64,000 nucleotides of DNA from a virus (taxonomy: Duplodnaviria > Heunggongvirae > Uroviricota > Caudoviricetes). Each line of letters opens with the position of its first letter. Within the stretch, counting starts at the first letter, position 1. The notes beneath the pieces are model-generated. The model was given only the letters and a program-made list of their open reading frames with translations, did no database searches and was not told the origin of the DNA. Positions 15,374 through 61,540 of this stretch are shown here, piece after piece. The stretch lies in IMG/VR virus record IMGVR_UViG_3300042314_001251, positions 31,580-95,579 of that record; one strand, 5' to 3'. The position numbers and the translations under genes were made by a program.

Positions 15374-15377
15374 ATAT

Positions 15378-26857: not shown

Positions 26858-27316
26858 ATGAAAATTACAAAAACAAGTGAGAAAGGTATTGATTTAATTA
26901 AATCTTTTGAAGGATTTATGTCAAAACCTTATTTATGTCCAGCTAAAATCCCAACAATTGGGTATGGAGCAACTTTTTACCCTGACGGTAAAAAAGTAAC
27001 CTTAAATGACAAAGCGATTACTGAAGCGGAAGGTGTTGCGTTATTAAAAAGTATGTTAGTAAAGTTTGAACAATACGTTGATTCTTACTGTGTGGATACA
27101 ATTAATCAAGGTCAATTTGATGCATTAGTTTCTTTCGCCTATAACTTAGGTCCAGCTAACTTAAAATCTAGTACATTACTTAAAAAAGTTAATACTGACC
27201 CTAACGACCCAACTATTGAAGTTGAATTCTTAAAATGGACTAAAGCTGGTGGTAAAACACTTAAAGGTTTGGTAAGAAGAAGAGAGGCTGAAGTTAAATT
27301 ATATTTTAATAAATAA
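26858..27316 (+). CDS. phage lysozyme (GH24, T4-e/lambda-R-like muramidase)
   Basis: GIDLIKSFEGFMSKPYLCPAKIPTIGYG matches the GH24 catalytic Glu ... GYG motif. Confidence 0.7.
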   Translation: MKITKTSEKGIDLIKSFEGFMSKPYLCPAKIPTIGYGATFYPDGKKVTLNDKAITEAEGVALLKSMLVKFEQYVDSYCVDTINQGQFDALVSFAYNLGPANLKSSTLLKKVNTDPNDPTIEVEFLKWTKAGGKTLKGLVRRREAEVKLYFNK

Positions 27317-43788: not shown

Positions 43789-43862
43789 CGATGTGTATAT
43801 CAGTTGGTTAGATAGACACTCTGATAAGGTGTAGGTCGGAGGTTCGAGCCCTCCCACATCGA
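43789..43862 (+). tRNA. tRNA-Ile (anticodon GAT)
   Basis: Acceptor CGATGTG/CACATCG, anticodon arm ACACT-CTGATAA-GGTGT, T-arm GGAGG-TTCGAGC-CCTCC. Confidence 0.8.
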
Positions 43863-43890
43863 CAAAAAAGAAAAAGTTCTTTGATGTATT
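43861..43890 (+). repeat. 30-nt segment GACAAAAAAGAAAAAGTTCTTTGATGTATT, repeated with 3 differences at 60697..60725
   Basis: Direct repeat found by eye; follows a tRNA 3' end here and a hairpin at the second site. Confidence 0.55.
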
Positions 43891-43902
43891 GGTATTAGTA
43901 AT

Positions 43903-43975
43903 GACTCAGTAGCTCAATTGGTAGAGCTCCACACTGTTAATGTGGCCGTTACAGGTTCAAGTCCTGTCTGAGTCG
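43903..43975 (+). tRNA. tRNA-Asn (anticodon GTT)
   Basis: Acceptor GACTCAG/CTGAGTC, D-arm GCTCAATTGGTAGAGC, anticodon loop CTGTTAA, T-arm ACAGG-TTCAAGT-CCTGT. Confidence 0.8.
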
Positions 43976-44105
43976 CTGAGGTTGATTGGGGAATGATATA
44001 ACGTTAACGTGTCAGTAGTCGTGGTTATATCGGAGTTGTAACTGTCCGAGTAAAGCCAATCGTAAAAGGGGATGTCCACACAACCATCTTCCCCTTTCCT
44101 AACTT

Positions 44106-44186
44106 GGGAACTGAAAGTCGTTTGGATACGGCAGCGAAACTGTAAATTTCGTCCTCGCGGGAGTGGTTCGAGTCCACCAGGTCCCA
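44106..44186 (+). tRNA. irregular tRNA-Tyr-like (anticodon GTA; class II-type)
   Basis: Perfect anticodon arm CGAAA-CTGTAAA-TTTCG (as in bacterial tRNA-Tyr), T-arm AGTGG-TTCGAGT-CCACC, acceptor GGGAACT/AGGTCCC with one A-G mismatch and 4 nt instead of 2 between acceptor and D stem. Confidence 0.45.
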
Positions 44187-44254
44187 CAAAAAAAAATAAA
44201 TGTAATATAAGTGGATTTTAACTCTGTTTGTTATATTTATAATAAAAGAATATT

Positions 44255-44704
44255 ATGAAACAGAGAGAAGTTAAAATTACTGATGAAGAAATAAAGTTGG
44301 CATATGACAAATACGACACACTACATCAGGCATCCGCAGAATTAAAAATGACTACTGTGTCATTATGGAGAAGGGCAAAAAAAATTGGTTTAGCCTGGAA
44401 AGATAAAAACTTTAAACCTGAACAACAAAAAATACCTTTAAACGAGATTATAGAAGGTAAACATCCGTACTACCAAACCTTAAAATTAAAAAAAAGGTTA
44501 TTGAAAGAAGGGGTTAAAGAAAATAAGTGTGATATTTGCGGTATAATAGATTGGAATAATATAGAGTTATCAATGCAATTAGACCATATTGATGGTGACT
44601 CACACAACCACAAATTGGATAATTTAAGGATGGTTTGCCCTAACTGCCATTCACAAACAAACACTTATTGTGGTAAAAATAAAAAAATCAAAGCGGAAAT
44701 TTGA
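44255..44704 (+). CDS. HNH homing-endonuclease-like protein
   Basis: CDICG...LDHIDGDSHNHKLDNLRMVCPNCHSQ (HNH with CxxC...CxxC zinc site). Confidence 0.7.
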   Translation: MKQREVKITDEEIKLAYDKYDTLHQASAELKMTTVSLWRRAKKIGLAWKDKNFKPEQQKIPLNEIIEGKHPYYQTLKLKKRLLKEGVKENKCDICGIIDWNNIELSMQLDHIDGDSHNHKLDNLRMVCPNCHSQTNTYCGKNKKIKAEI

Positions 44705-44734
44705 AAACAACATGTCTTCCTGTATATTTTATAC

Positions 44735-44806
44735 GCGTCTTTGGTGTAATTGGTAGCACGGCTGGTTCCAACCCAGTCGGTCAGGGTTCGAGGCCTTGGG
44801 GATGTG
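44735..44806 (+). tRNA. tRNA-Trp (anticodon CCA)
   Basis: D-arm GTGT-AATTGGTA-GCAC, anticodon arm GCTGG-TTCCAAC-CCAGT, T-arm CAGGG-TTCGAGG-CCTTG; acceptor GCGTCTT/GGGATGT pairs only with four G-U wobbles. Confidence 0.6.
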
Positions 44807-44811
44807 CAAAT

Positions 44812-44884
44812 GGTGATGTAGCTCAGTTGGTAGAGCAAAGGACTGAAAATCCTTGTGTCGAAGGTTCAATTCCTTCCATCACCA
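44812..44884 (+). tRNA. tRNA-Phe (anticodon GAA)
   Basis: Acceptor GGTGATG/CATCACC, D-arm AGCTCAGTTGGTAGAGC, anticodon arm AAGGA-CTGAAAA-TCCTT, T-arm GAAGG-TTCAATT-CCTTC; CCA follows. Confidence 0.85.
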
Positions 44885-44891
44885 CCATTAT

Positions 44892-44966
44892 AGGGTAATG
44901 GACTAATTGGCAAGTCACCACGTTTGGGACGTGGGCATCGTGAGAGTTCGAGTCTCTCTTACCCTA
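44892..44966 (+). tRNA. tRNA-Pro (anticodon TGG)
   Basis: Acceptor AGGGTAA/TTACCCT, anticodon arm CCACG-TTTGGGA-CGTGG, T-arm GAGAG-TTCGAGT-CTCTC. Confidence 0.7.
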
Positions 44967-44974
44967 CTATACAA

Positions 44975-45047
44975 TGTCCTATGGTGTAATTGGCAACACG
45001 TCGGTTTTTGGTACCGAAGAGTCGAGGTTCGAACCCTTGTGGGACAA
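44975..45047 (+). tRNA. tRNA-Gln (anticodon TTG)
   Basis: U1-A72 acceptor TGTCCTA/TGGGACA, D-arm GTGT-AATTGGCA-ACAC, anticodon arm TCGGT-TTTTGGT-ACCGA, T-arm CGAGG-TTCGAAC-CCTTG. Confidence 0.75.
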
Positions 45048-45131
45048 CAATATGGTGTTTGAAGCATTAAGGTGATGTACTAGTTTGTGGGACTAGGAAA
45101 GACGGGTCGGTACCGTCCTTACACCCAAAAA

Positions 45132-45218
45132 GGAAAGGTGGGTGAGTGGCTAAAACCAACAATCTGCTAAGTTGTCGTACCTGTAAGGGTACCGAGGGTT
45201 CGAATCCCTCCCTTTCCT
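45132..45218 (+). tRNA. tRNA-Ser (anticodon GCT; class II, long variable arm)
   Basis: Acceptor GGAAAGG/CCTTTCC, anticodon arm ACAAT-CTGCTAA-GTTGT, variable hairpin GTACC..GGTAC, T-arm GAGGG-TTCGAAT-CCCTC; CCA follows. Confidence 0.8.
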
Positions 45219-45224
45219 CCATAT

Positions 45225-45296
45225 GTGGATGTGATGTAACGGTTAACATGAGACTCTTATACAGTCTTCTCGGTGGTTCAACTCCACCCATCCATA
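45225..45296 (+). tRNA. tRNA-Ile (anticodon TAT, would decode AUA)
   Basis: Acceptor GTGGATG/CATCCAT, D-arm ATGT-AACGGTTA-ACAT, anticodon arm AGACT-CTTATAC-AGTCT, T-arm GGTGG-TTCAACT-CCACC. Confidence 0.7.
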
Positions 45297-45301
45297 CTAT
45301 T

Positions 45302-45375
45302 ACACTCTTAGCTCAATGGATTAGAGCACAACGTTACGGACGTTGGGGTTGGTGGTTCGAGTCCATCAGAGTGTA
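45302..45375 (+). tRNA. tRNA-Arg (anticodon ACG)
   Basis: Acceptor ACACTCT/AGAGTGT, D-arm GCTC-AATGGATTA-GAGC, anticodon arm CAACG-TTACGGA-CGTTG, T-arm GGTGG-TTCGAGT-CCATC. Confidence 0.8.
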
Positions 45376-45384
45376 CAATAATAA

Positions 45385-45455
45385 GGCACCATGCCCGAGT
45401 GGTTAGGGGTCGGTCTGCAAAACCGCTTACATTGGTTCGAACCCAATTGGTGCCT
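45385..45455 (+). tRNA. tRNA-Cys (anticodon GCA)
   Basis: Acceptor GGCACCA/TGGTGCC with U73 discriminator, anticodon loop CTGCAAA, T-arm ATTGG-TTCGAAC-CCAAT. Confidence 0.75.
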
Positions 45456-45538
45456 CTATCTTTAATTTCTTTTATATTCAATATAGGCCCAAACACCAAC
45501 AAATATTGGGGTTAGTATAGCAATAACTATTTCTGTAT

Positions 45539-47746
45539 TCATCGCATAATTGTTAAATGTCCTGTTATCATTTTACGTGAGTCATCATACTCAGACCCAT
45601 ACATTATTCTCCAAACATAAATCCCATCAAAACACATTTTATTATTATAAGTACCATCCCAACCAACGGTATGATTGTATGATTCAAAAATTGTTTCACC
45701 CCATCTATTGAATACCAATAAATTATAATCATAGACATCAAACCCATCAGTAAATATTGGTAACCAAATATTGTTGAAAGCATCACCATCGGGGGTAAAT
45801 GTATTAGGTATATAAATTAATTCTTGTGGACATTCTTGTATTGCTATATTAGCTTGTTCTTCATTAGAAACACAACCATTAACCGTTTGGGAAACGCTAA
45901 TTGTATAAAAACCAACATTATTCCAAACATAAGGTAAACTATTATCTTGTATTGTATCACCTTCAACAACCCAATCAAACAACCCAGATAAAGATGAATA
46001 AGCTGTATAGATTCTAAAAATACTATCACCTTCACAAAGTTGGTTAAATTCATATGAAGGTGTTACAGATGTTATGATTGGTTGTGGGTTTACAATAACG
46101 TTGATTGTTGTATCAAATGGGCAATTACTTTGTGTATATGTATAAGTTACATCATTGTTTGTTATGATACCTTGTTGTGGGCAAAATTCATCAGTCTGAA
46201 CCCCATTGACTAAGAAAGTACCATTTAAAGGTGAACCCACTAAATCTACACAACCATCATAATCACAAAAAGGACCAATAGGGTCTATTGTAGGGTTTAT
46301 GTTTAAAATAAATGTAGTGAAGTAAGAGGTATCACTATTACAACCAATAGGACTAGTAGAATAAACACTTATAGAGTCTTGATATAAACCACTAGGTTCT
46401 AATGACCAATCCGTTGTTATATTATCAGTACCTTGACCATTTATTATTTGTGGTGTTGTAGACCATATGTAGTTGTAACCAACACCCATAGAAGGTACAC
46501 TATAACTTTCTGATGTTGATAAATAACATACCGTATCAGGACCACTAATAGGTGTCATTATTATTTGTGCTGGGTTAGTGAGTGTTGCATTACCTGTTAC
46601 GGTACAACCTATACCGTCTGTAATTAAAAAACTATAATTACCATAACAAAGGTTAGTGGGGTTAAAAGTTGTTTGTAGAGTATTCCAAGAAATAGTAGTG
46701 ACACCATTGGTTCCGTTAGGGATTACATTAATACTACCATCACAATAGTTATAACAAGTTGGGTCAATAAAAGTAATTGTAGGTTGTGGTAAGTTAGGTG
46801 GACCAGGTTGTACAAACACCGTATCAGGTCCTGGACCGGCAATACTATTACAAGTATTCCATCCAACATTACAAGAAGGATATACTAGTTGACAAGTATA
46901 ATTAGCTCCTTGTACAGGTGGTGTAACCGTAATGGACGCACCAACCCCAATTGGATTTGGGTTACCTACAATATACCATGTTGGTACAGGTAAAACAGTT
47001 GGTCCACTTGGAGTGTATCGGTACGCATCATTATTTGCTGTCCATTGTGTGGAATTCCTACCTGGTACAGTTATCGCCACGGTTCCTGTGGTATTATGTA
47101 ATCCTTGAACCGCGGTACCTCCCGCCCAAGCTAGACAGTTTGGTTTTGATTGAATATAATTTTCTATTACGTTTGTTGATTCATAAATCACTGTATGAAA
47201 TGTCCCCAGTAAATTTGTACATGAAAACATAGGGACACCAACCCAACTAACAACTAATTTTCTACAAGGTGCTGTACCTTGAACTTGGTACCTAATTTGC
47301 CCACCTAAACCTGGGTGCCAATCTTGCCAAGGACCCATGACACAATTTTTTGGTACTGTACCCGCACCATTAGGTATTGTTGCTGAAGTAAATGTTGTTG
47401 GTTGTGCCGGTGAAAAAGAAATCCAACCGTTAGAACCAACCCAAAATTGATTGTATGTTTGTCCAAAGAAACAAAATGTAAACCCAATATTAAAAGGACC
47501 TTGTTGTGAATCATCCGACATAAATAATTGTGTACCAGTATTTGTTTGTGTTACATAAGGAATATTTGTAACACCGTAGTTTGTTGTTTGATTTGGATTT
47601 GAACCTGGTCCACATTGACTAAAATCGGCAGTTAATGTTGTTGACCCAACACCACAAGGTAGTATTTGGTCTGGTCCTAAATAAGGACAGTATTGTGAAT
47701 AGGTCACAAAAGAAATTAGTATAAAAAGGTATTTAATTAAGTTCAT
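45539..47746 (-). CDS. secreted Cys-rich protein with T9SS type-B C-terminal sorting domain (gliding-motility-associated CTD)
   Basis: N-terminal signal peptide MNLIKYLFILISFVTYSQ; C-terminus IPNTFTPDGDAFNNIWLP...FNRWGETIFES...GWDGTYNNK...GIYVWRI...GHLTIMR matches the T9SS type-B CTD pattern (PNxFTPNGDGxND..F...RWG..VF...WDG...G.Y.Y......G.v.l.R); 735 aa, G/P/T/N/C-rich. Confidence 0.7.
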   Translation of the reverse strand: MNLIKYLFILISFVTYSQYCPYLGPDQILPCGVGSTTLTADFSQCGPGSNPNQTTNYGVTNIPYVTQTNTGTQLFMSDDSQQGPFNIGFTFCFFGQTYNQFWVGSNGWISFSPAQPTTFTSATIPNGAGTVPKNCVMGPWQDWHPGLGGQIRYQVQGTAPCRKLVVSWVGVPMFSCTNLLGTFHTVIYESTNVIENYIQSKPNCLAWAGGTAVQGLHNTTGTVAITVPGRNSTQWTANNDAYRYTPSGPTVLPVPTWYIVGNPNPIGVGASITVTPPVQGANYTCQLVYPSCNVGWNTCNSIAGPGPDTVFVQPGPPNLPQPTITFIDPTCYNYCDGSINVIPNGTNGVTTISWNTLQTTFNPTNLCYGNYSFLITDGIGCTVTGNATLTNPAQIIMTPISGPDTVCYLSTSESYSVPSMGVGYNYIWSTTPQIINGQGTDNITTDWSLEPSGLYQDSISVYSTSPIGCNSDTSYFTTFILNINPTIDPIGPFCDYDGCVDLVGSPLNGTFLVNGVQTDEFCPQQGIITNNDVTYTYTQSNCPFDTTINVIVNPQPIITSVTPSYEFNQLCEGDSIFRIYTAYSSLSGLFDWVVEGDTIQDNSLPYVWNNVGFYTISVSQTVNGCVSNEEQANIAIQECPQELIYIPNTFTPDGDAFNNIWLPIFTDGFDVYDYNLLVFNRWGETIFESYNHTVGWDGTYNNKMCFDGIYVWRIMYGSEYDDSRKMITGHLTIMR

Positions 47747-47889: not shown

Positions 47890-48639
47890 ATGAAGTTAAT
47901 TAGAGAATTCGATGATTTTAGTTGGACTAATATGGGTACACTTAATCCGTTTATGAGTGATGACCCACTTGTTGTTGTATGGTTAGATAAATCTGCCACT
48001 GAATCAGAGATTAATAAATTATATGATATGCTTTTGGAAGTTAATATAGAAATTAGTACATCAAAGTCAGATTTTGTAAAAAGTTTATTAACATATTCTA
48101 GAAATGGGTCTGCATATGTTAAATCTTACATAGCTCAAAATGGTGAAAAAAGAGCTGGGTATGGTGATACAAAAGCTTTATTTGATGAACATAAATATTG
48201 GAAAGCTATGGAAGATTTAGACGGTAAACCATATATAGAATATAAATTAGGTGATATCTTTAAAGATAGATTAAATGAGTCTGAAGAGTTAAATTGGATT
48301 ATAGAAAGTAACCCATCATTTAGAAACAAGATAATTATTTTTGAACCACTGATTATTGAGGATGAGTATAATATTGTTATAGATGGTTTATTAGAATTTG
48401 ATGAGGACCTTTATACCTATAGTGGTAATTTAGAAGAATTAAGACCTTTCACTTCTTATGATTATTTACACCATTTAGTTATAGGTTTAAATGGTGTAGT
48501 AGCTTATGGTGGGGCCAATGAACATAACAACGAAGACTGGGGTGGTTTTATGGATAACGTAGAAAATTACATAGGTAATTATTATAAAAATTTTAACAAC
48601 CCAGAAGTTATTGATGGAAGAAAATATTTTAATCTTTAA
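47890..48639 (+). CDS. hypothetical protein
   Basis: 249-aa ORF preceding the kinase genes. Confidence 0.5.
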   Translation: MKLIREFDDFSWTNMGTLNPFMSDDPLVVVWLDKSATESEINKLYDMLLEVNIEISTSKSDFVKSLLTYSRNGSAYVKSYIAQNGEKRAGYGDTKALFDEHKYWKAMEDLDGKPYIEYKLGDIFKDRLNESEELNWIIESNPSFRNKIIIFEPLIIEDEYNIVIDGLLEFDEDLYTYSGNLEELRPFTSYDYLHHLVIGLNGVVAYGGANEHNNEDWGGFMDNVENYIGNYYKNFNNPEVIDGRKYFNL

Positions 48640-48663
48640 TAACTCCAATTAATACTTATTGAT

Positions 48664-50589
48664 ATGGATAAAAATTTTTACATTAATAAATTAAATAAAA
48701 CTTTAATTTCACAAACACATAACCCTCTTTTTTATAAAGGGGATATAGTAGAAGGTTCTAAAATTCTAACTAAAGAAGTTGTAGACTCAATTAATGTTGA
48801 TAGATGTTCTATATGGTTATACAACAAAAATAAAACATCTATTGTTTGCCAACAATTATATGTTAAATCTGAAAATATGTGGTATGATGGTTTAGAAATC
48901 TTTGAAAAGGATTTTGGACCGTATTTCGAAGAATTAATAAAGAACCCAATAATAATAGCTAATGATGCTGAAAAACATCCAGCAACATCTTGTTTTACTG
49001 ATGGTTATTTAAAACCACTGGGTATTAAATCTATGTTAGATGTACCTATCATTTATTTTGGGGAAACTATTGGTGTTATATGTATTGAAAGTTTTACATT
49101 ACGTGAATGGGATTCTTTTGAGGTTGATTTTACTCAATTATTATCTTCTTTATACACTTTTGCTTATTCAATAAAAGAAACAAACAATTTAAATAAAAAA
49201 ATAGAAGAAACAGAAAAATTTATTGACGTATCGACAATTATATCTACTGCTGATAAAAGAGGTAAAATTACATATGTTAATAAAAAATTTGAGGATGTTT
49301 CTGGGTGGTCTTTGGATGAGGTAGTTGGTAAAGACCATGTTATTGTTAATTCGGGATTACAACCTGATGGATATTGGGGTAAAATGTATGAAACGGTAAT
49401 GAAAGGTGATGTATGGAATGACGTTGTTACCAATAAAGGAAAATCAGGAGAATTATATTACGTTGATACTTTTATTAGAGCAATTTTTGATACCGATGGT
49501 AAATTGGATGGATTTGCTTCAATAAGACAAGATGTTACAGAACTTAAAAAAAAGGAAGTTGAAATTCGCAATAGAATGAACGCGATAAATAAATCTAACG
49601 CAGTTATTGAGTTTGATTTAGAAGGAAACATCATTTTTGCTAATAATTTGTTTTTAGAAACTATGGGATATTCTTTACAGGATGAAGTAGTTGGAAAACA
49701 CCATAGAATTTTTATAGATGAGGAATACTCAAAAAGTGAAGAATACTCTCTTTTTTGGGAAAAATTAAATGAAGGGGTGTTATTTACCGGTGAAATTACT
49801 AGAATTAAAAAAGACGGTTCTTTAGTGTATCTACAAGCAACATACAATCCAGTTATCGGTTTAGATGGTAAGGTTTATCGTGTTATGAAAATCGCGACAG
49901 ATATCACCAATTCCTACGAACAAAAGAAAGAAATTGAAAAGAAAAACACTTACCTAGAACATGCGGCTAAAATATTAAGACACGATATGCATTCAGGTAT
50001 TAATACTTATATGCCAAGAGGATTAAGTTCTTTAGAAAGAAGATTAACCCCCGAAGATATTAAAACTTTAAAAATTGAGGCCCCAATTAAAATGATTAAA
50101 GAGGGTTTAAAACATTCCCAAAAAGTATATAAAGGGGTTTACGAATTTACAAATCTTGTAAAGAAAGATGTTGTTTTAAATAAAACGGAATGTAATTTAA
50201 AAGATATACTTGAGGATTATTTATCAGCGACAGCATATAGTAGTCAAGTTATTATTGATGAGTTACCAACGATAGAAGTTAATGAACCATTATTCTGTAC
50301 CGCAGTCGATAATTTAATTCGTAATGGGTTAAAGTATAATGATAGTAATACAAAATTTGTTAAAATATATATGGAAGATGGTAATCTAATTATACAAGAC
50401 AACGGTAGAGGGATTACACAAAAAGATTTTATTCATTTATCCCAACCATATACCAGAAAAGAAGGCCAAAAAGAATCTGGAACTGGTCTAGGGCTTAATA
50501 TATGTGTAGCTATTTTAGAAGAACATAAATTTAATATTTCGTGTGAGAAAAATGACATAGGGACAAAAATGAAAATTGAACTAAAATGA
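48664..50589 (+). CDS. cytoplasmic sensor histidine kinase: GAF - PAS - PAS - variant DHp (H-box RHDMHSGI) - HATPase_c
   Basis: GAF-like N-terminus (CSIWLY...DVPIIYFGETIGVICIES); two PAS-like segments (GKITYVNKKFEDVSGWSLDEVVGKDH; GNIIFANNLFLETMGYSLQDEVVGKHH); H-box EHAAKILRHDMHSGINTY; N-box DNLIRNGLKYN, G1 DNGRGI, G2 GTGLGLNI. Confidence 0.7.
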   Translation: MDKNFYINKLNKTLISQTHNPLFYKGDIVEGSKILTKEVVDSINVDRCSIWLYNKNKTSIVCQQLYVKSENMWYDGLEIFEKDFGPYFEELIKNPIIIANDAEKHPATSCFTDGYLKPLGIKSMLDVPIIYFGETIGVICIESFTLREWDSFEVDFTQLLSSLYTFAYSIKETNNLNKKIEETEKFIDVSTIISTADKRGKITYVNKKFEDVSGWSLDEVVGKDHVIVNSGLQPDGYWGKMYETVMKGDVWNDVVTNKGKSGELYYVDTFIRAIFDTDGKLDGFASIRQDVTELKKKEVEIRNRMNAINKSNAVIEFDLEGNIIFANNLFLETMGYSLQDEVVGKHHRIFIDEEYSKSEEYSLFWEKLNEGVLFTGEITRIKKDGSLVYLQATYNPVIGLDGKVYRVMKIATDITNSYEQKKEIEKKNTYLEHAAKILRHDMHSGINTYMPRGLSSLERRLTPEDIKTLKIEAPIKMIKEGLKHSQKVYKGVYEFTNLVKKDVVLNKTECNLKDILEDYLSATAYSSQVIIDELPTIEVNEPLFCTAVDNLIRNGLKYNDSNTKFVKIYMEDGNLIIQDNGRGITQKDFIHLSQPYTRKEGQKESGTGLGLNICVAILEEHKFNISCEKNDIGTKMKIELK

Positions 50590-51200
50590 TAAAACTAAAA
50601 AATTTATTAACCATATTTTTCATAAGTATGGTAAGTATAGTGTATTCACAACCAACCTACCCTATCCAGACACAATTAAAAGGTGATTCTGTGGTTATTC
50701 TTACAAAAAAACAATCTGATGATATTAATTCACTAATTGAGAATCAAAAAATTAGAATACAAAAATATAAAACAGAAATAAAATTAGTTAATGATACTAA
50801 CACGTTATTAAATAACGATATTAAAATAAAAGATAGTGTTATTAACCAATTGGATAGTTTGTTAACCGTCCAAAACAATTATTACGATAGTTTAATTTCT
50901 AAAATAGATACGTTAGAGAATTGGATTTTATCGTCGTCGATAGATAATGGGTACCTATATTATTCTTGGCAAGACTCAACAGTTAAAGTTATTGATTTAA
51001 GTTTGTATATGTTAGTATCGCATAGAGGAAGTGGTAATTATAGTTTAATTACAAGAGGTGATGTTACTAATATATATTATTGGAAACAAATAAATCTACT
51101 TAAAGAAGAAAGTCCTGAGATTGGTTGGGAATTAAATATATCCCCAAAATATAAACCAAGAATAGTATTATTCCCATATAAATTAACCCCAAAATTATGA
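50586..51200 (+). CDS. secreted/periplasmic hypothetical protein (signal peptide)
   Basis: N-terminus LLTIFFISMVSIVYSQ; ATGA overlaps with both flanking kinase genes. Confidence 0.5.
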   Translation: MIKLKNLLTIFFISMVSIVYSQPTYPIQTQLKGDSVVILTKKQSDDINSLIENQKIRIQKYKTEIKLVNDTNTLLNNDIKIKDSVINQLDSLLTVQNNYYDSLISKIDTLENWILSSSIDNGYLYYSWQDSTVKVIDLSLYMLVSHRGSGNYSLITRGDVTNIYYWKQINLLKEESPEIGWELNISPKYKPRIVLFPYKLTPKL

Positions 51201-52600
51201 TAAAAAATATTTTAATAACAATAATGTTTTTGGGTTTTTTTACTTCTTTAAATGTAAATTCACAGACTGATAATAACCCCAAAAAAACAGAGATTGAACC
51301 TACATGTCCTAGTGATAGTCGTATAACTAGTTTAATTAAAAAATTAAATTACGAACCAAATAAAAAATTAACTAAATACCAATCAAGCTTATGTCAAGAA
51401 ATTGGTATCTCTTTTTATAATAAAGGTATGTATGATGAGTCAGATTGGTATTTAGATAAGGTTAGTACCTATATTGATGTTGTTGATTTAAAACCTGAAA
51501 AAGTTTTTGACACACCTAAAGAAGAACCCGTACAAGAGTTAAGTGACTCAGAATTATCTAGTATTAAAGCCGACCAAAAATTTTTAGATGACCTACCAAA
51601 ATCATACGATAATTTATCTAAAAAAGATATAAAAAAAATTGCTGATGAGATAGAGTCAAAACTCCAAAAACTATTAAAAGAAAAAAAAGAATTATTAAAA
51701 AATAAAGCTAGTCAAGAAGTTATCAGTTCTAAAACAAGTACTATACAAATATTAGGTAAAGAAAAAAATATCATTAATCTTAGTGTTAAAAATGATGATT
51801 TAGTTACCGATAAAAAAACCTTAAAAAAATATTTATGGTGGTCCACAATTGTTCTTTCTGTTTTGGTTTTAGGTATTATTGTTTTATTACAAAGAAAAAC
51901 AATTAAAGTCCAAGACATAGAAATCGAAAACCAATTAAAAGACATTAACAAGAAAAACACTTACCTTGAATATGCGGCTAGAATAATTAGACACGACATG
52001 CATTCAGGTATTAACACCTATATACCAAGAGGGTTATCGTCATTAGAAAAAAGAATTTCAATTGAGGAAATGAATAACTTAAAAATTACACCCTCAATTA
52101 AAATGATAAAAGATGGTTTGGCACACACACAAAAAGTATATAAAAGTGTTTATGAGTTTACAAACCTTGTGAAAAATACTGTAGTTTTAGATAGAAATAT
52201 GGTTGATATAAAAGAATCTTTATTAAAATACTTAACAAATACATCATATAAAAATCAGGTAGAAATTAGTGAATTAGTTACACTAAATGTAAATGAAACT
52301 CTTTTTTGGAACGCTATTGATAATTTAATTAAAAATGGGTTAAAATATAATAGTAGTGAAAATAAAGAAATTAAAATTTACATGGATAATAATGATTTAA
52401 TTATTGAAGATAATGGTGTTGGATTTTCACAAAAAGAGTTCGAAAGAACAACAGGTGAATATTTAAATAAAAAGAGTAATTCCGAAGTTGGTTTAGGTTT
52501 AGGTATAACCAAAACAATTTTAGAAGAACATGGTTTTAGTATGATGTGTGAAAAAATTAACACTGGTACAAAAATAACGGTTAAATTAAATAAAAATTAA
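51197..52600 (+). CDS. membrane sensor histidine kinase (signal peptide/periplasmic domain - TM - DHp - HATPase_c), paralogous kinase core to 48664..50589
   Basis: Signal peptide ILITIMFLGFFTSLNVNSQ; TM YLWWSTIVLSVLVLGIIVLL; H-box EYAARIIRHDMHSGINTY; N-box DNLIKNGLKYN; G-boxes EDNGVGFS, GLGLGI. Confidence 0.65.
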   Translation: MIKNILITIMFLGFFTSLNVNSQTDNNPKKTEIEPTCPSDSRITSLIKKLNYEPNKKLTKYQSSLCQEIGISFYNKGMYDESDWYLDKVSTYIDVVDLKPEKVFDTPKEEPVQELSDSELSSIKADQKFLDDLPKSYDNLSKKDIKKIADEIESKLQKLLKEKKELLKNKASQEVISSKTSTIQILGKEKNIINLSVKNDDLVTDKKTLKKYLWWSTIVLSVLVLGIIVLLQRKTIKVQDIEIENQLKDINKKNTYLEYAARIIRHDMHSGINTYIPRGLSSLEKRISIEEMNNLKITPSIKMIKDGLAHTQKVYKSVYEFTNLVKNTVVLDRNMVDIKESLLKYLTNTSYKNQVEISELVTLNVNETLFWNAIDNLIKNGLKYNSSENKEIKIYMDNNDLIIEDNGVGFSQKEFERTTGEYLNKKSNSEVGLGLGITKTILEEHGFSMMCEKINTGTKITVKLNKN

Positions 52601-52607
52601 AAAAAAA

Positions 52608-53045
52608 ATGATTGATTCTATATTATTAGTTGATGACGAGGATTTATTCCATTTAGTATTTGAGGATGCGTGTTCCTTATTAGATATAAGTTTGTCTTTA
52701 AACGCGTTAAACAGTTCTGACGAAGCAGCAAAACTATTCCAAAAATGGTTCCAAAGTGGTAATGAAGACAATAAACCAGAATGTGTTTTTGTTGACTTAA
52801 ATATTATTGGTAGTTCTTTTGATGGTATTGAGTTAATTAGAAAAATAAACTTTGAATATGGTAACCATGTGGTTATTGGTATAATTTCATCGTCTAATGA
52901 ACCAGATGAACAAGCTAAAGCATTACAAGCTGGAGCACAGTTTTGGATTATTAAATCAGACGATATAGAACCAAGACTAGAAGAATTTAGAAAAGATTAC
53001 GAAGGTTATAAAAATAGAACCGCACCATTTAAAGTTTACAAATGA
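52608..53045 (+). CDS. stand-alone response-regulator receiver domain (CheY-like)
   Basis: ILLVDDED (acidic pair), VFVDLNI (phospho-acceptor Asp), GIISSS, IIKSD (Lys). Confidence 0.6.
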   Translation: MIDSILLVDDEDLFHLVFEDACSLLDISLSLNALNSSDEAAKLFQKWFQSGNEDNKPECVFVDLNIIGSSFDGIELIRKINFEYGNHVVIGIISSSNEPDEQAKALQAGAQFWIIKSDDIEPRLEEFRKDYEGYKNRTAPFKVYK

Positions 53046-53719
53046 TTAAAATAGAAAGTTTTACTAAAAAAAGTTTAATAGATTTATATAAAGAAAAAAA
53101 TGTAGGTCTTGAGGGTAATATCACAAAATTAATTGATTCTGAGGATGATGAAGAATTTAAAGATTATTTAAAAGATTGTGAATTAAGAGATACCGAAAAA
53201 AGGAAGAAGCGTCTTGATATGACAAAAAAAATACAAAAACAAAATCAAGAACTATCTAATTTAAATAATGAAAACGAAAGAATTCTAGAAGAATTACAGG
53301 AAACTTTAAAAGACGTTGAGGATTCCAAGTTGACGTATGAGGTTCAGAATAAGGAACTTAATGAGTGGAAAGAAGATAACCTTAGATTAACTGAAGAGTT
53401 AAAAAATGAAATGGCTAAATCTGAAAAGGCTAGAATAGATGCGGAAAAAGCTAAAGATATGGCCGAAAACGATTTAGATTTATTACAAAAAAGAACTCAA
53501 AATGAACTAATCTCCACCATTGTTAGAGTTGCTCTATGGATAATCATGGGTGTGGGTTTTGTAACAACTGGTGTTTATGTCTTCACATTATTAATGGGCA
53601 AAGACACTCAAGTTATTAGTGCTACTTGGTCTAACATATTTGGTATTCTATTAACAAATGCATTTTCTATTGTAGGTACCATTATGGGTATAAAATACGC
53701 AACAGAAAAAAAAGAATAA
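53042..53719 (+). CDS. coiled-coil protein with C-terminal double TM anchor
   Basis: Heptad-rich E/K/L region; C-terminal VALWIIMGVGFVTTGVYVFTLLM and FGILLTNAFSIVGTIMGI. Confidence 0.5.
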   Translation: MIKIESFTKKSLIDLYKEKNVGLEGNITKLIDSEDDEEFKDYLKDCELRDTEKRKKRLDMTKKIQKQNQELSNLNNENERILEELQETLKDVEDSKLTYEVQNKELNEWKEDNLRLTEELKNEMAKSEKARIDAEKAKDMAENDLDLLQKRTQNELISTIVRVALWIIMGVGFVTTGVYVFTLLMGKDTQVISATWSNIFGILLTNAFSIVGTIMGIKYATEKKE

Positions 53720-53748
53720 AAATAGTTTGACAATTAATAAACTTTTAC

Positions 53749-53756
53749 TATATTTG
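53749..53756 (+). promoter_or_regulatory. -7 box TAtaTTTG upstream of a 33-codon ORF (53799..53900), its terminator and the second tRNA cluster
   Basis: Exact TAnnTTTG. Confidence 0.45.
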
Positions 53757-53798
53757 TACCATATTTAATTAATACGAACAAAAATTTTTATAAATTCA

Positions 53799-53900
53799 AT
53801 GAAAACAACAATGACATACAAACAAGGGACCGTTAAAACGGTTGATGGGAAAGTGGATTCACTTTTCTACGGACATGGGTTGTCATACTGGAGTTGTTGA
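53799..53900 (+). CDS. possible micro-ORF (33 aa, MKTTMTYKQGTVKTVDGKVDSLFYGHGLSYWSC)
   Basis: ATG 43 nt downstream of the -7 box; followed by a terminator; could instead be a non-coding leader. Confidence 0.25.
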   Translation: MKTTMTYKQGTVKTVDGKVDSLFYGHGLSYWSC

Positions 53901-53926
53901 TTTGAATTTACTCTATATATAGAATA

Positions 53927-53956
53927 ACCCTGGGTCCAAAAGATTCAGGGTTTTTT
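53927..53956 (+). terminator. intrinsic terminator (ACCCTG-loop-CAGGGT + T6)
   Basis: 6-bp stem, 13-nt loop, TTTTTTG. Confidence 0.55.
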
Positions 53957-53983: not shown

Positions 53984-54073
53984 GGAAGGGTGGCAGAGTT
54001 GGTCTATTGCATCTGATTTGAAATCAGAAGTACCTTTGAAAGGGTACCGTGGGTTCGAATCCTACCTCTTCCT
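53984..54073 (+). tRNA. tRNA-Ser (anticodon TGA; class II)
   Basis: Acceptor GGAAGGG/CTCTTCC, anticodon arm TCTGA-TTTGAAA-TCAGA, variable hairpin GTACC..GGTAC, T-arm GTGGG-TTCGAAT-CCTAC. Confidence 0.8.
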
Positions 54074-54080
54074 CATAAAT

Positions 54081-54152
54081 GGTCCATTGGTGTAGTGGCC
54101 AACATACATCCCTGTCACGGATGTGCCGCGAGTTCGATTCTCGCATGGACCG
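54081..54152 (+). tRNA. tRNA-Asp (anticodon GTC)
   Basis: Acceptor GGTCCAT/ATGGACC, anticodon arm CATCC-CTGTCAC-GGATG, T-arm GCGAG-TTCGATT-CTCGC. Confidence 0.8.
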
Positions 54153-54193
54153 CAACTAACCATAAATCCTAGTAACCCCTAGGTTGGTTAAAC

Positions 54194-54266
54194 AGTTCCT
54201 TAGCTCAGCTGGGAGAGCAACTCGCTTACATCGAGAAGGTCACAGGTTCGAACCCTGTAGGAACTA
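54194..54266 (+). tRNA. tRNA-Val (anticodon TAC)
   Basis: Acceptor AGTTCCT/AGGAACT, D-arm GCTC-AGCTGGGAG-AGC, anticodon loop CTTACAT, T-arm ACAGG-TTCGAAC-CCTGT. Confidence 0.75.
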
Positions 54267-54275
54267 CAATAAATT

Positions 54276-54350
54276 GCCTCATTAGCTCAGCTGGCTTAGA
54301 GCGTCTGATTTGTACTCAGAAGGCCGTGGGTTCGATTCCTACATGAGGCT
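54276..54350 (+). tRNA. tRNA-Thr (anticodon TGT)
   Basis: Acceptor GCCTCAT/ATGAGGC, D-arm GCTC-AGCTGGCTTA-GAGC, anticodon arm TCTGA-TTTGTAC-TCAGA, T-arm GTGGG-TTCGATT-CCTAC. Confidence 0.8.
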
Positions 54351-54412
54351 CAATTAATAACAAACAAATAAAAACGTCAGATTATGGAAAGTGGCAAGTA
54401 TGGCAAACACAA

Positions 54413-54484
54413 TCCCTCGTAGCAAACAAGTGTAGGCAACGGACTTTTAATCCGTGGGGCTGGGAGCGTTACCCGGCGGGGGAA
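54413..54484 (+). tRNA. degenerate tRNA-like element (72 nt) with TTT (Lys) anticodon arm; possible pseudo-tRNA
   Basis: 7-bp acceptor TCCCTCG/CGGGGGA; anticodon arm ACGGA-CTTTTAA-TCCGT; T-arm-like CTGGG-AGCGTTA-CCCGG with non-consensus loop; no convincing D-stem. Confidence 0.3.
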
Positions 54485-54492
54485 CAAAACAC

Positions 54493-54562
54493 ACCGAGGC
54501 TTAGTGGTAAAGAACTATCTCTCATAAGGATGGTCAAGTGGGTTCAATTCCCATACTCGGTA
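54493..54562 (+). tRNA. tRNA-Met (anticodon CAT; loop CTCATAA)
   Basis: T-arm GTGGG-TTCAATT-CCCAT, acceptor ACCGAGG/ACTCGGT (one mismatch at the stem base), anticodon arm TATCT-CTCATAA-GGATG (two G-U). Confidence 0.55.
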
Positions 54563-54570
54563 CATTATAT

Positions 54571-54641
54571 TGCGGCAAGGTGTAATTGGTTGCATGGGAG
54601 TCTCATAAACTTCAGGGGTGGTTCGAGTCCACAGCACGCTA
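54571..54641 (+). tRNA. irregular CAT-anticodon tRNA-like element (possible tRNA-Ile2/Met pseudogene)
   Basis: D-arm GTGT-AATTGGTT-GCAT, anticodon arm GGAGT-CTCATAA-ACTTC, T-arm GGTGG-TTCGAGT-CCACA, but the 3' strand GCACGCT has no complementary 5' acceptor strand. Confidence 0.3.
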
Positions 54642-54646
54642 CTAAT

Positions 54647-54721
54647 GGGGATATAGTTTAATTGGCTAAAACATCTGATTTGCATTCAGAAGATGTCTCG
54701 GTTCGATTCCGAGTATCTCCA
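54647..54721 (+). tRNA. tRNA-Ala (anticodon TGC)
   Basis: Acceptor GGGGATA/TATCTCC with the G3-U70 Ala identity pair, anticodon arm TCTGA-TTTGCAT-TCAGA, T-arm CTCGG-TTCGATT-CCGAG. Confidence 0.8.
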
Positions 54722-54918
54722 CAATAAAATAACAAAAGAAAAAGAAAGAAATTAATGAAGATAGTGTTAACAGGTAAATTAGAATCACATAGAGAAATTT
54801 TTAGAGGAGAAAGAGAAAAAAATAAATTGATTAAAAGAATAAAAAAATTTATTTTTAAAAGAAAAAACGCTTAATAGAACAAAGTACAAGTTCAGGGTGG
54901 GGTGCGGTTCCCACAAAT

Positions 54919-54992
54919 GCGGGTGTAGCTCAATTGACTAGAGTACTAGCCTTCCAAGCTGGGAGTTGCGGGTTTGAATCCCGCCACCCGCT
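54919..54992 (+). tRNA. tRNA-Gly (anticodon TCC)
   Basis: Acceptor GCGGGTG/CACCCGC, D-arm GCTC-AATTGACTA-GAGT, anticodon arm CTAGC-CTTCCAA-GCTGG, T-arm GCGGG-TTTGAAT-CCCGC; CCA follows. Confidence 0.8.
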
Positions 54993-54996
54993 CCAT

Positions 54997-55079
54997 ACGT
55001 CAGTGGCGGAATTGGTAGACGCGTTGGTTTTAGGAACCAATATCGTTAAGATGTGGGGGTTCGACTCCCCCCTGACGTA
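54997..55079 (+). tRNA. tRNA-Leu (anticodon TAG; class II)
   Basis: Acceptor ACGTCAG/CTGACGT, D region GCGGAATTGGTAGACGC, anticodon arm TTGGT-TTTAGGA-ACCAA, long variable arm, T-arm GGGGG-TTCGACT-CCCCC. Confidence 0.8.
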
Positions 55080-55109
55080 CTTTTATTTTGCCAATTAAAC
55101 AATAACCCT

Positions 55110-55122: not shown

Positions 55123-55818
55123 ATGAAAAAATTAACCTTTATTAGTGACACACACACCAAACACGAGAAACTTAACGGTTTTCTTCCTGGTGGTGATATG
55201 TTAATCTGTGCTGGTGATATCACTAGTAGAGGTTATAAAACTGAAATTGAAAATTTTCTTAAGTGGTTTGATAAAATTGATAACTATGACCACAAAATTT
55301 TCATAGCAGGTAATCACGACTTTGGTTTCCAAGACCAACCTAATGAAACTAAAGGTTTGTTAACTGGTTATAAAACAGTTGAATATTTACAAGACGAACT
55401 TTTATTGGTTGGTGATGAGGATTATGACGATATGGTTAAAGTTTGGGGTACTCCTTGGCAACCTGAATTTCATAATTGGGCATTTAACTTACCAAGAGGA
55501 CAAGCTTTAAAAGAGAAGTGGGATATGATAACAGTTGGTACTGACATTCTTATCACTCACGGACCACCATTTGGCAAATTGGATTACGTAAAATACCCAA
55601 ATCAAAATGTTGGTTGTGAAGAACTAATGAAACGAGTTGAAGTAATCAAACCAAAAATTCACGTATTTGGACACATCCACGAAGGTTATGGTTATGTGTT
55701 TGATGGAAATACTCACTACATTAACGCAGCTGTGTTAAATGGACGATATGAGTTCCGCAATAAACCTGTGAATGTTTTATGGGATAAAAACACAAATCAT
55801 TTGGAATTTGTTGATTAA
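55123..55818 (+). CDS. calcineurin-like metallophosphoesterase
   Basis: FISDTH, GDITSRG, GNHDF, HGPP, GHIHEG motif series. Confidence 0.65.
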   Translation: MKKLTFISDTHTKHEKLNGFLPGGDMLICAGDITSRGYKTEIENFLKWFDKIDNYDHKIFIAGNHDFGFQDQPNETKGLLTGYKTVEYLQDELLLVGDEDYDDMVKVWGTPWQPEFHNWAFNLPRGQALKEKWDMITVGTDILITHGPPFGKLDYVKYPNQNVGCEELMKRVEVIKPKIHVFGHIHEGYGYVFDGNTHYINAAVLNGRYEFRNKPVNVLWDKNTNHLEFVD

Positions 55819-55835: not shown

Positions 55836-56297
55836 ATGAATAAAGTAAAAATATATTTGGATGACATAAGAACTCCTAATGACAAAGATTGGTTGGTTGT
55901 TAGGAGTTTTTATGAATTTGTAGACTTAATAAATAAAGTTGGTTTGAATAACATCGAATTAATTTCATTAGACCATGACTTGGGTGATACTGCTATGAAT
56001 GAGTATTATAACAATGTTTCACCTAACTACAAATTAGATTATGAGAACATAGAAGAAAAAACTGGTTACGACGCGGTTAAATGGTTAGTTAATTTGTTTT
56101 ATTCTTTGAATGAACATAGAATCAACATGAGTAGGTCTGAGAAAAAAAGGGATAAAAATTTTTATTTCCCTAAAGTTGTGGTTCATTCAGCTAACCCAAT
56201 AGGTTCAGCTAATATCATGGGTTATATCAATAACTTTTTAATGAATGAAGGTAAATCACAAGATTGTATAAGAGTTAAAATTGAGTATTATGTATGA
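55836..56297 (+). CDS. hypothetical protein
   Basis: 153-aa ORF. Confidence 0.5.
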   Translation: MNKVKIYLDDIRTPNDKDWLVVRSFYEFVDLINKVGLNNIELISLDHDLGDTAMNEYYNNVSPNYKLDYENIEEKTGYDAVKWLVNLFYSLNEHRINMSRSEKKRDKNFYFPKVVVHSANPIGSANIMGYINNFLMNEGKSQDCIRVKIEYYV

Positions 56298-61101: not shown

Positions 61102-61184
61102 GCTCGGGTGGTGAAATAGGTATACACGTTTGACTTAAAATCAAATTCCCATTGGGAGTGAGGGTTCAAGTCCCTCTCCGAGTA
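61102..61184 (+). tRNA. tRNA-Leu (anticodon TAA; class II)
   Basis: Acceptor GCTCGGG/TCCGAGT (G-U at both ends), anticodon arm TTTGA-CTTAAAA-TCAAA, variable arm CCCATTGGGAG, T-arm GAGGG-TTCAAGT-CCCTC. Confidence 0.75.
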
Positions 61185-61245
61185 CTGTGAAATGAACAAC
61201 GTCACCACAAGAGTTGTACCTTTATGGTTTTATAATGTGGTATTT

Positions 61246-61317
61246 GGTCCTATCGACTATCGGTTAGGTCGTCAGGTTTTCATCCTGGAAAGCGGGGTTC
61301 GATTCCCCGTAGGACTA
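61246..61317 (+). tRNA. tRNA-Glu (anticodon TTC)
   Basis: Acceptor GGTCCTA/TAGGACT, anticodon arm TCAGG-TTTTCAT-CCTGG, T-arm CGGGG-TTCGATT-CCCCG. Confidence 0.75.
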
Positions 61318-61400
61318 CAAAAGAGGTGGATACTTTGTACGTAGATAATTTAGTAATATCTTGTCGTAGTGCACCGTTGACGAAACCTCTTTTATTTTTG

Positions 61401-61473
61401 GGTCCCGTAGTGTAATGGATTAACATAAGGAGCTTCTACCTCTTTGATTCAGGTTCGAATCCTGACGGGACTA
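61401..61473 (+). tRNA. tRNA-Arg (anticodon TCT)
   Basis: Acceptor GGTCCCG/CGGGACT, D-arm GTGT-AATGGATTA-ACAT, anticodon arm AGGAG-CTTCTAC-CTCTT, T-arm TCAGG-TTCGAAT-CCTGA. Confidence 0.75.
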
Positions 61474-61540
61474 CTAAAAAAATATTAACTACTAGGTTCG
61501 ATTTTTAATAAACCTTAAATATTTATTAATAAAATATATT

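Follow-up and report, generated by a model that had tools for sequence, protein, structure and literature searches.

Bacteria rely on two-component systems as their standard means of sensing, and the usual view of phages is that they exploit or jam the copies owned by their hosts. Signal perception owned by the phage is known from the agr cassette of phiCDHM1, which includes an AgrC kinase, from VqmA of Vibrio phage VP882 and from arbitrium, all of them quorum or peptide receptors serving lysis–lysogeny decisions or host quorum sensing. Lysis inhibition in T4 involves holin T and the antiholins RI and RIII, while in Firmicutes the two-component system LytSR controls the holin-like and antiholin-like proteins CidAB–LrgAB, with LytS being a 5TM-Lyt/His_kinase (PF06580) protein and LytR acting on transcription through a LytTR DNA-binding output. 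Here, we describe a locus in a 64,000-nucleotide stretch of viral DNA (positions 31,580 to 95,579 of IMG/VR record IMGVR_UViG_3300042314_001251, a member of the Caudoviricetes; hereafter, the window). Its six consecutive plus-strand open reading frames (ORFs, Table 1) include genes for a soluble (HK1) and a membrane-bound (HK2) sensor histidine kinase, a stand-alone receiver (REC) and a coiled-coil protein with two transmembrane (TM) segments (orf6).

The locus resembles the agr, VqmA and arbitrium systems in that signal perception owned by the phage would steer the outcome of infection; to our knowledge, none of those systems is a kinase–receiver–membrane-protein trio or is conserved across hundreds of jumbo-phage genomes. 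With T4 lysis inhibition it shares a concept, the timing of lysis on a sensed signal through membrane proteins that act on the holin, but the sensing parts are here a histidine kinase with a receiver, lysis is linked to them only through gene neighbourhood (the cassette genes adjoin endolysin or holin genes in relatives), and comparisons with PHROG and by Foldseek found no relationship of orf6 to the T4 lysis-inhibition proteins in sequence or fold. Like LytSR, it is a two-component system tied to a membrane protein that would control the access of murein hydrolases, although the lysis role is here a proposed one, the kinase is HisKA-derived, the receiver has no DNA-binding domain and the system is viral; none of the LytSR domains (5TM-Lyt, PF06580, LytTR) was found in the cassette with Pfam or NCBIfam. 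The literature searched on phage-encoded kinases, two-component systems and lysis control contained nothing relevant, and the 'huge phages' paper is silent on them too.

Comparison with its relatives demonstrates that the conserved unit of this locus consists of three genes, HK1–REC–orf6, and not of all six, which a preliminary description of the sequence had grouped into one cassette. Relatives of HK1 were found on at least 587 IMG/VR viral contigs, some of them 170–304 kb long; the protein search gave 1849 matches, one of them on a 302,830-bp contig that also encodes T4_Y16D, RNA_lig_T4_1 (T4 RNA ligase) and Tad6, and Gp23 is a further T4-like neighbour on relatives' contigs. When the window proteins were compared by tblastn with 82 of the related loci, HK1, REC and orf6 were present wherever the contig reaches far enough, with identities of 63–87% for HK1 and 43–75% for orf6. 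Conservation within the cassette is highest for REC, which is 80–95% identical in IMG/VR relatives and 64–74% in distant ones. The orf6 gene was always found together with REC, whose stop codon overlaps the orf6 start by 4 or 1 nt in nearly all loci; the two genes are translationally coupled. The trio characterises a large clade of uncultivated, T4-like aquatic phages of ~150–300 kb, in which it forms an island of conservation within a region of high gene turnover, and we are highly confident that it constitutes a genuine kinase–receiver–orf6 module maintained by the phages themselves.

The other three ORFs are variable. The orf3–HK2 pair occurs in only about 8 of 88 relatives; the closest relative, L102 (L numbers designate related loci), lacks it and has the order cargo gene, orf1, HK1, REC, orf6. 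Nucleotide identity between the window and L102 falls from 97% to 86% at the end of HK1, a drop that indicates a recombination breakpoint (window 50602/51938) and identifies orf3–HK2 as a variable insert; the paralogous transmitter sequences of the two kinases could mediate its gain or loss. The orf3 protein, which has a hydrophobic, signal-like N-terminus (aa 1–19, hydropathy scan) and matched no family in Pfam, NCBIfam or PHROG, was found only where HK2 is present (L001, L021, L072, L075 and L095, at 29–38% identity), HK2 also being seen without it (L007, L078 and L082), and is probably an accessory partner of HK2. No family in the same three collections was matched by orf1, which has only five homologue clusters among 5.8 billion proteins and is missing from all 82 related loci first examined, being present in the closest relatives, L102–L107. 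In L001, a 303-kb phage contig, a NUMOD3 homing-endonuclease gene (13134–13856) lies between HK2 and REC.

The gene order of the window, with orf1, orf3 and HK2 included, was recovered in separate assemblies of at least five samples. Among the contigs read with a window-like order, the longest measures 150 kb and includes a Gp23-family gene; the exact orf1 protein also occurs on contigs of up to 252 kb. Because the order recurs in independent assemblies, the window contig is neither chimeric nor an assembly artefact, a chimera being a possibility that the preliminary description had named among the refuting ones. All six ORFs were recovered as first described, on the plus strand, whereas the ATGA-type overlaps attributed to them are present at three of the five junctions (HK1/orf3, orf3/HK2 and REC/orf6); at the other two, the genes are 24 and 7 nt apart. 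A scan for promoters and terminators within the cassette gave no more hits than in shuffled sequence.

Both kinases have the architectures initially assigned to them. HK1 is a soluble protein (no TM segment in a hydropathy scan) in which GAF and tandem PAS domains, the latter also matched by S-box TIGR00229 (2.5e-30), precede a DHp–CA transmitter whose HATPase_c match in Pfam spans aa 544–640. HK2 begins with a hydrophobic N-terminus that looks signal-like by inspection, followed by an extracytoplasmic region of ~190 aa and one strong TM segment; it has no HAMP domain, its DHp–CA part begins at aa 246, and HATPase_c is its only Pfam match. The ATP-binding boxes are complete and conserved in both proteins, as had been claimed, with PF02518 matched at 51.4 bits in HK1 and 44.0 bits in HK2 (cut-off 26.4); in HK1 the N box reads DNLIRNGLKYN, G1 DNGRG, the F-like box QPYTR and G2 GTGLGL. 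The two transmitters are paralogous (57% identity over 221 aa, E = 4e-80, BLAST) and have in common the unusual box E(H/Y)AA(K/R)I(L/I)RHDMHSGINTY, which was correctly noticed in both kinases at the outset with its first two positions slightly mis-stated. The predicted phospho-acceptor of HK1, His440, lies within the box ILRHDMHSGINTY, and that of HK2 is His266. Both kinases are therefore predicted, from sequence and model, to carry a phosphorylatable histidine together with a complete ATP-binding domain.

The HisKA profile of Pfam is silent on the H-box region, but three other approaches agree that it is a DHp domain, as originally supposed. Firstly, HDMHSGINT of HK1 aligns with HELRTPLTA of Thermotoga HK853 (phmmer against PDB sequences) at chain position 29, which corresponds to the phospho-acceptor His260 when mapped from the construct numbering. 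Secondly, the AlphaFold2 (AF2) model of the HK1 transmitter (predicted local distance difference test score (pLDDT) 84.5, predicted template modelling score (pTM) 0.76) contains helices at fragment positions 2–45 and 57–82 with the histidine in the first of them, a short helix at the tip of the hairpin, and an alpha/beta domain after the second long helix. Thirdly, Foldseek aligned this model over its full length to HK853, CpxA, CusS, EnvZ chimeras and ZraS (E ~1e-9), and its best structural matches are all HisKA-class kinases. The phage kinases thus share with the class I systems HK853–RR468, CpxA, EnvZ and CusS the DHp hairpin, the His260-equivalent with an Asp after it, the N/G1/F-like/G2 boxes of the CA domain and the D-D-D-S/T-K set of the receiver. 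They differ from them in an H-box, H-D-M-H-S-G-I-N-T-Y, that lacks T/N-P and is followed by an invariant PRG, in the extra tip helix, in having no Pfam HisKA match, in their occurrence, so far, only on phage or phage-like contigs, and in a receiver that lacks an output domain and is coupled to a membrane protein.

When 1.84 billion representative proteins were searched exhaustively with a profile, 101 clusters scored at E ≤ 1e-30. Among the best-scoring representatives that cover the region, (I/L)RHDMHSGINTY(I/M)PRG is nearly invariant (about 100 clusters at 50% identity), and across 63 representatives of the family the RHD, the N box and the G1 and G2 glycines are invariant or nearly so. In weaker relatives the H-box loosens first to IRHDLxN and in the end to SHDLKAPVR, an ordinary form; since the weaker relatives grade in this way and the best structural matches are of HisKA class, the subfamily derives from HisKA. 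The profiles of HisKA_2, HisKA_3, HWE and His_kinase gave no match to either kinase, and these classes were rejected. On this evidence, HK1 and HK2 belong to a discrete, tightly conserved subfamily of HisKA descent, and the idea that the H-box marks a distinct subfamily is upheld to that extent, without its extending to a separate DHp class.

The sensor region is far less uniform than the transmitter. Among relatives, that of HK1 varies from PAS–PAS only to TM-anchored or none, and the N-terminal parts of the 63 representatives contain PAS (about 27), GAF (5) or TPR (1), many having no recognised sensor domain. A multi-TM N-terminal domain replaces GAF in L019, L029, L037, L044 and L079, and in L095 and L096 a phage SmpB gene (tmRNA partner; 968–1432 and 225–656, respectively) is located directly upstream of a sensor-less family kinase of 291 aa. 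A blue-light (light-oxygen-voltage, LOV) reading of the HK1 PAS domains was discarded, as YtvA and LOV-kinase models scored well short of their cut-offs and the sequence, GKDHVIVNSG, lacks the Cys motif that binds flavin.

REC matches Response_reg (PF00072, 35.9 bits against a cut-off of 30.2) and no other domain, confirming the earlier view of it as a receiver with no output domain. Its active-site residues, D9, D10 (with E11), D63 (codon 52794–52796), S94 and K116, are canonically spaced (31 residues from D63 to S94 and 22 from S94 to K116), and D9, D10, D63, S94 and K116 do not vary among 48 distinct sequences; the Asp/Lys geometry, which had been singled out for checking, is intact. The stand-alone receiver 3ilh, which we take to be a Cytophaga hutchinsonii protein, is its best natural match among PDB sequences (E = 1e-4). 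REC is like 3ilh, CheY, DivK and Rcp1-type regulators as a stand-alone receiver of the kind that signals by protein–protein contact, and differs from such single-domain regulators by a conserved C-terminal extension of ~28 aa (IEPRLEEF..D..GYK.RT.PFK.Y) and by KS instead of KP after the conserved Lys. The beta1–alpha1 segment, LVDDE.LFHLVFED.CSLLD, is invariant or nearly so, and so is helix 1 of the kinase DHp domain below the histidine; their joint invariance suggests an insulated kinase/receiver pair. An assignment of REC to cREC (PF20274) was also considered and rejected, since it matches PF00072 instead and a true cREC gene is present separately in the window.

The third member of the trio, orf6, has two C-terminal TM segments (hydropathy scan) and a charged tail, KYATEKKE. 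In its AF2 model (pLDDT 77), a small N-terminal helical region is followed by a single helix of ~150 residues (aa 37–185) that continues as TM1 and leads through a tight turn into TM2 (189–223). Conservation is concentrated in an N-terminal LEGNI.K motif and in TM2, which is rich in small and polar residues (WSN..GILLTN.FSI.GTI.G.KY). The protein has 5963 database matches at E ≤ 0.001, a count that its coiled-coil composition may inflate; it matched no Pfam or NCBIfam family and, in PHROG, gave only a weak match to phrog_1544, of unassigned function, and Foldseek against the PDB returned noise (E > 3), so that identification as a known holin, spanin or other fold was set aside. The modelled topology (N-in, C-in, charged tail) resembles that of a class II holin. 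We do not call orf6 a holin because of its size and because relatives have a separate holin_10 gene; a regulator of the holin, either an antiholin or an adaptor, appears to fit better.

What connects the trio to a process in the phage is its neighbourhood, which was surveyed in about 90 trio loci including the window (88 tabulated plus the window-like L102–L107). In about 71 of the 90, a gene of peptidoglycan-hydrolase or holin type (GH19, Peptidase_M15_3, X202 or PG_binding_1–X202) lies within 2 kb of the trio, in at least seven different arrangements that include non-homologous hydrolases (GH19 vs M15_3). The two commonest place a GH19 gene either 14–17 bp after orf6 (24 loci, several of which have a 55-aa Phage_holin_10 gene next, at ~875 bp) or divergently upstream of HK1 (27 loci; mostly 27–96 bp, 671 bp in two). 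Looser spacings also occur, with GH19 0.6–1.4 kb downstream of orf6 in six loci and X202, alone or in a PG_binding_1–X202 fusion, ~0.4 kb upstream in another six. Two loci each have GH19 on the same strand 4 bp upstream together with an M15 peptidase 163 bp downstream, a convergent Peptidase_M15_3 with a small TM protein 318 bp downstream, or X202 35–44 bp upstream with GH19 ~0.65 kb away; L072 and L075 are single or ambiguous cases. A context recorded for orf6 homologues reads X202 on the minus strand, then HK(GAF-PAS-PAS)–REC–orf6–PG_binding_1+GH19 endolysin–Phage_holin_10.

X202, defined as phrog_3000, equals the C-terminal domain of the endolysin family phrog_33083, in which the N-terminal domain is a T4-type lysozyme; it is located 35–56 bp upstream of HK1 in many relatives, is fused to PG_binding_1 in L054, and gave only chance nanobody matches when compared with PDB sequences. 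The other flanking genes are almost wholly unrelated between the relatives and the window and, because they share almost nothing, the trio and the lysis genes stay together where the region is otherwise fluid. In most relatives, the trio is embedded in a lysis module or abuts one. These neighbours were invisible in the preliminary description because the window itself is an exception. Downstream in L002 there is a weak Rz-like spanin candidate; a 'peptidase' of L083, considered as an endolysin, is a papain-like C1 protease and not an obvious endolysin.

Our best overall explanation, which we rate at even chances, is that the locus encodes a self-contained, phage-specific phosphorelay that probably gates lysis. 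The kinase would autophosphorylate in response to an intracellular cue sensed through the GAF and PAS domains of HK1, joined by a periplasmic cue in phages that also have HK2 and orf3. The phosphoryl group would pass from His440 or His266 to D63 of REC. Because REC has no DNA-binding domain, phosphorylated REC is expected to act through contact with a protein partner, for which the cytoplasmic coiled-coil of orf6 is the likeliest candidate; orf6 would then modulate the action of holin and endolysin and so set the time of lysis, as a two-component analogue of T4 lysis inhibition. Taken on its own, the proposition that the output of the module is lysis control, which draws on gene order, seems to us somewhat short of an even chance. 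The full picture of an insulated, virus-only lysis clock, gated by GAF/PAS cues (in some phages also by HK2/orf3) and running through REC to orf6 beside holin and endolysin, is put forward more tentatively again.

Several observations weigh against this explanation. In the window itself, the lysozyme and X202 genes are 21 kb upstream of the cassette, and about 19 loci have no nearby lysis gene; these include the most divergent ones, L083 and L085 (neighbours partly screened), and the subclade with a TM-anchored kinase (L019, L029, L037 and L044, with L079 the exception), some of the lysis-gene-free loci having truncated flanks. The number of independent lysis-adjacency events is small, because the loci are phylogenetically related and several of the arrangements are one inversion apart. 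No holin or antiholin family is matched by orf6, and its relatives own a separate small holin. As for the kinases, HisKA (PF00512) gave no match at E ≤ 0.1 to HK1 or HK2 and is not among the families reported for the 63 representatives (E ≤ 0.001), and their H-box, H-D-M-H-S-G-I, is without the usual T/N-P and departs from the consensus H-E/D-x-[RK]-[TN]-P-L. Finally, restriction to phages is qualified by the non-exhaustive nature of the species-genome scan (one genome per species, 185,579 species), whose matches stem in part from a low-complexity pattern and whose results hold among the matches listed: within them, the kinase family is likely, although not proven, to be absent from cellular genomes.

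That scan listed three contigs, from two metagenome-assembled genomes (MAGs) labelled Bdellovibrionota and Alphaproteobacteria, each of which also has REC and orf6. The two with long flanks have phage neighbours by PHROG, including an exonuclease, a UV endonuclease, phrog_22605 and a baseplate wedge protein, and the third, of 5 kb, is too short to judge; the contigs, at 38–49% GC, look like mis-binned phage contigs. The claim that complete kinase/receiver sets are rare in phages holds for the 50,697 phage records of GenBank, in which neither megablast or blastn of the cassette nor tblastn of HK1 and REC found a member of the family (HK1 gave generic PAS/HATPase matches only, REC nothing) and to which the window had no match at the DNA level. 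It does not hold for metagenomic phages, given the IMG/VR contigs counted above.

The strongest competitor, in our judgement unlikely but serious, is a general sensor of the infection state, in which phosphorylated REC would act on a different target in phage or host (the transcription machinery, the gliding motor and a metabolic enzyme being examples), orf6 would only tether or buffer REC at the membrane, and proximity to lysis genes would be synteny inherited within the clade. Such a sensor would suit the high identity of the cassette in loci that have no lysis gene near (the window, L019, L029, L037 and L083), the freely swapped sensor domains (GAF–PAS, PAS, TM-anchored or none), as for a general-purpose input, and the small number of arrangement classes, partly interconvertible by inversion. 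It accounts poorly for the retention of a hydrolase within 2 kb of the trio in about 71 of 90 loci while the flanks turn over almost completely, for the replacement of one hydrolase by a non-homologous one (GH19 vs M15_3) that is again kept beside the trio, for the 14–17-bp spacing between orf6 and the endolysin gene, which suggests co-transcription, and for the constant coupling of REC to a membrane protein with a highly conserved TM2.

Interference with host signalling, whether by a phage kinase that phosphorylates or dephosphorylates host response regulators or by a REC that drains phosphate from host kinases, with host two-component networks being rewired in the course of infection, is improbable. 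A receiver with no output domain is indeed like a phosphate sink, and other phages target host two-component systems with small proteins, the example being PIT4 of Pseudomonas phage LSL4 (PMC10714779). Against this stand the specificity region of the DHp domain and alpha1 of REC, which are unique to the family and conserved together, suggesting a matched, insulated pair; the retention of the same pair in phages of 30%, 38% and 49% GC, presumably with different hosts; and the weaker score of the nearest cellular-looking kinases (profile E ~1e-18, compared with 1e-30 or better within the family).

The preliminary description had further proposed a sensing-and-secretion island, on the grounds that a type IX secretion system (T9SS) cargo gene is adjacent on the opposite strand. 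This neighbour was confirmed, with a CHU_C/type B sorting domain matched by PF13585 (2.5e-12) and TIGR04131, and is also adjacent in the closest subclade (L003–L006, L008, L018, L044 and L102–L107), but only about 9 of 90 loci have it beside the cassette, its orientation varies (plus in L003–L006, minus in the window, downstream in L044), and no PorXY-type system is present, the PorY model NF052314 reaching 43 and 42 bits where 350 are required, with only the CA domain aligned, the receiver having no extra domain and no PorX-type regulator being found. A functional link to secretion is accordingly very improbable, and the cargo gene is treated as a neighbour of the system and not as part of it. 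The weakest alternative, that the locus is a host operon of recent capture, or a chimeric contig, and plays no phage-specific role, could appeal to domain types typical of bacteria and to the three GTDB MAG contigs among the matches listed, but is effectively refuted by the recurrence of the order in at least five samples, the 150-kb contig with its Gp23-family gene and the contigs of up to 252 kb with orf1, the at least 587 viral contigs that carry the family, the 80–95% identity of REC across the clade, which indicates long-term purifying selection, and the phage genes on the two long-flanked MAG contigs.

Table 1. Features of the kinase locus and of other genes in the window (positions count from the first nucleotide of the window).
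Feature	Position	Strand	Description
SbcC-like nuclease subunit	11828-14206		phrog_77
T4-type lysozyme	26858-27316	+	PF00959, 6.7e-40; phrog_7 endolysin
X202 endolysin-associated protein	27323-27913	+	phrog_3000 match
RtcB-like RNA ligase	35758-37200		phrog_850, 4.5e-149
tRNA regions	43789-45456, 53984-55080, also 61102-61474, 62825-62899	+	tRNA genes
T9SS-cargo-like gene	45539-47746	-	PKD-like + CHU_C type B sorting domain; neighbour
orf1	47890-48639	+	249 aa, hypothetical protein; outside conserved cassette
HK1	48664-50589	+	641 aa, soluble sensor histidine kinase GAF-PAS-PAS-DHp-CA
HK1 GAF	48760-49149	+	aa 33-162; PF01590, E = 1e-12
HK1 tandem PAS	49246-49908	+	aa 195-295 and 313-415; PAS_4, PAS_9, PAS_3 matches
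HK1 DHp helical hairpin	49912-50154	+	aa 417-497
HK1 predicted phospho-acceptor His440	49981-49983	+	codon within the H-box
HK1 CA domain	50185-50586	+	PF02518, 51.4 bits
orf3	50586-51200	+	204 aa, signal-peptide-like N-terminus, coiled-coil, beta-rich C-terminal part
HK2	51197-52600	+	467 aa, membrane sensor kinase
HK2 TM	51827-51910	+	aa 211-238, one strong segment (hydropathy scan)
HK2 predicted phospho-His266	51992-51994	+	codon
REC	52608-53045	+	145 aa, single-domain receiver
orf6	53042-53719	+	225 aa, coiled-coil/2-TM protein
Calcineurin-like phosphoesterase	55123-55818		immediately before cREC_REC gene
cREC_REC protein	55836-56297		PF20274, 1e-20; 2 kb from kinase/receiver set

Elsewhere, too, the window is phage-like: besides the SbcC-like and RtcB-like PHROG families it encodes a protein also found in T4-like cyanophages and pelagiphages, and it contains 23 tRNA genes, all on the plus strand. 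Two tRNA arrays bracket the cargo gene and the kinase cassette, the first of them enclosing an HNH endonuclease ORF (44255–44704); between orf6 and the second array, the interval 53727–53952 contains a sigma-70-like promoter close to the consensus (TTGACA-16-TATATT), an ORF of 33 codons and a strong hairpin terminator. The pair formed by the phosphoesterase and cREC_REC genes recurs in L002. Cyclic-phosphate processing receivers (cREC) have been linked to NAD/ADPr and RNA-repair systems and are said never to be found with histidine kinases (Iyer et al. 2021, PMC7824862). In L083, a phage-like contig of 49% GC binned as Bdellovibrionota, a three-gene cluster convergent with the cassette (12464–16899) resembles PrkA, SpoVR and YeaH by inspection, its first gene matching phrog_22605 (4e-130).

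With regard to the host, the T9SS-cargo neighbour points to a member of the Bacteroidota. By size, habitat and gene content, the cassette lineage resembles the moraphages, freshwater Bacteroidota phages of 200–307 kb with predicted Flavobacteriia hosts, T4-like structural genes, DnaK and ClpA (Perez-Hernandez et al. 2025, PMC12619734); relatives of the cassette reach 303–304 kb and have DnaK or ClpA/B-like genes beside it, namely HSP70/DnaK in L002 (7383–9269, Pfam) and L037 (7638–9530, by inspection) and a ClpA/B-like gene in L019 (5892–8402, by inspection). The moraphage paper makes no mention of kinases, receivers or lysis genes.

The domain types of the cassette are ordinary. What stands out is an H-box subfamily so far confined to phages and its fixed pairing with a receiver and a membrane protein, together with conservation on hundreds of jumbo-phage contigs and recurrent placement in the lysis module. 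A kinase–receiver pair under strong selection on hundreds of phage contigs, apparently missing from cultured phages and, within the genomes scanned, from cellular ones, gives a clear and testable example of sensing by a virus on its own behalf. The RHDMHSGINTY(I/M)PRG motif is a convenient marker with which to recognise cassette phages in metagenomes, and the family would supply an orthogonal kinase/receiver pair for synthetic biology. If the link to lysis is true, the trio would represent a new form of latent-period regulation in abundant freshwater Bacteroidota phages, with a bearing on burst size, bloom dynamics and carbon turnover.

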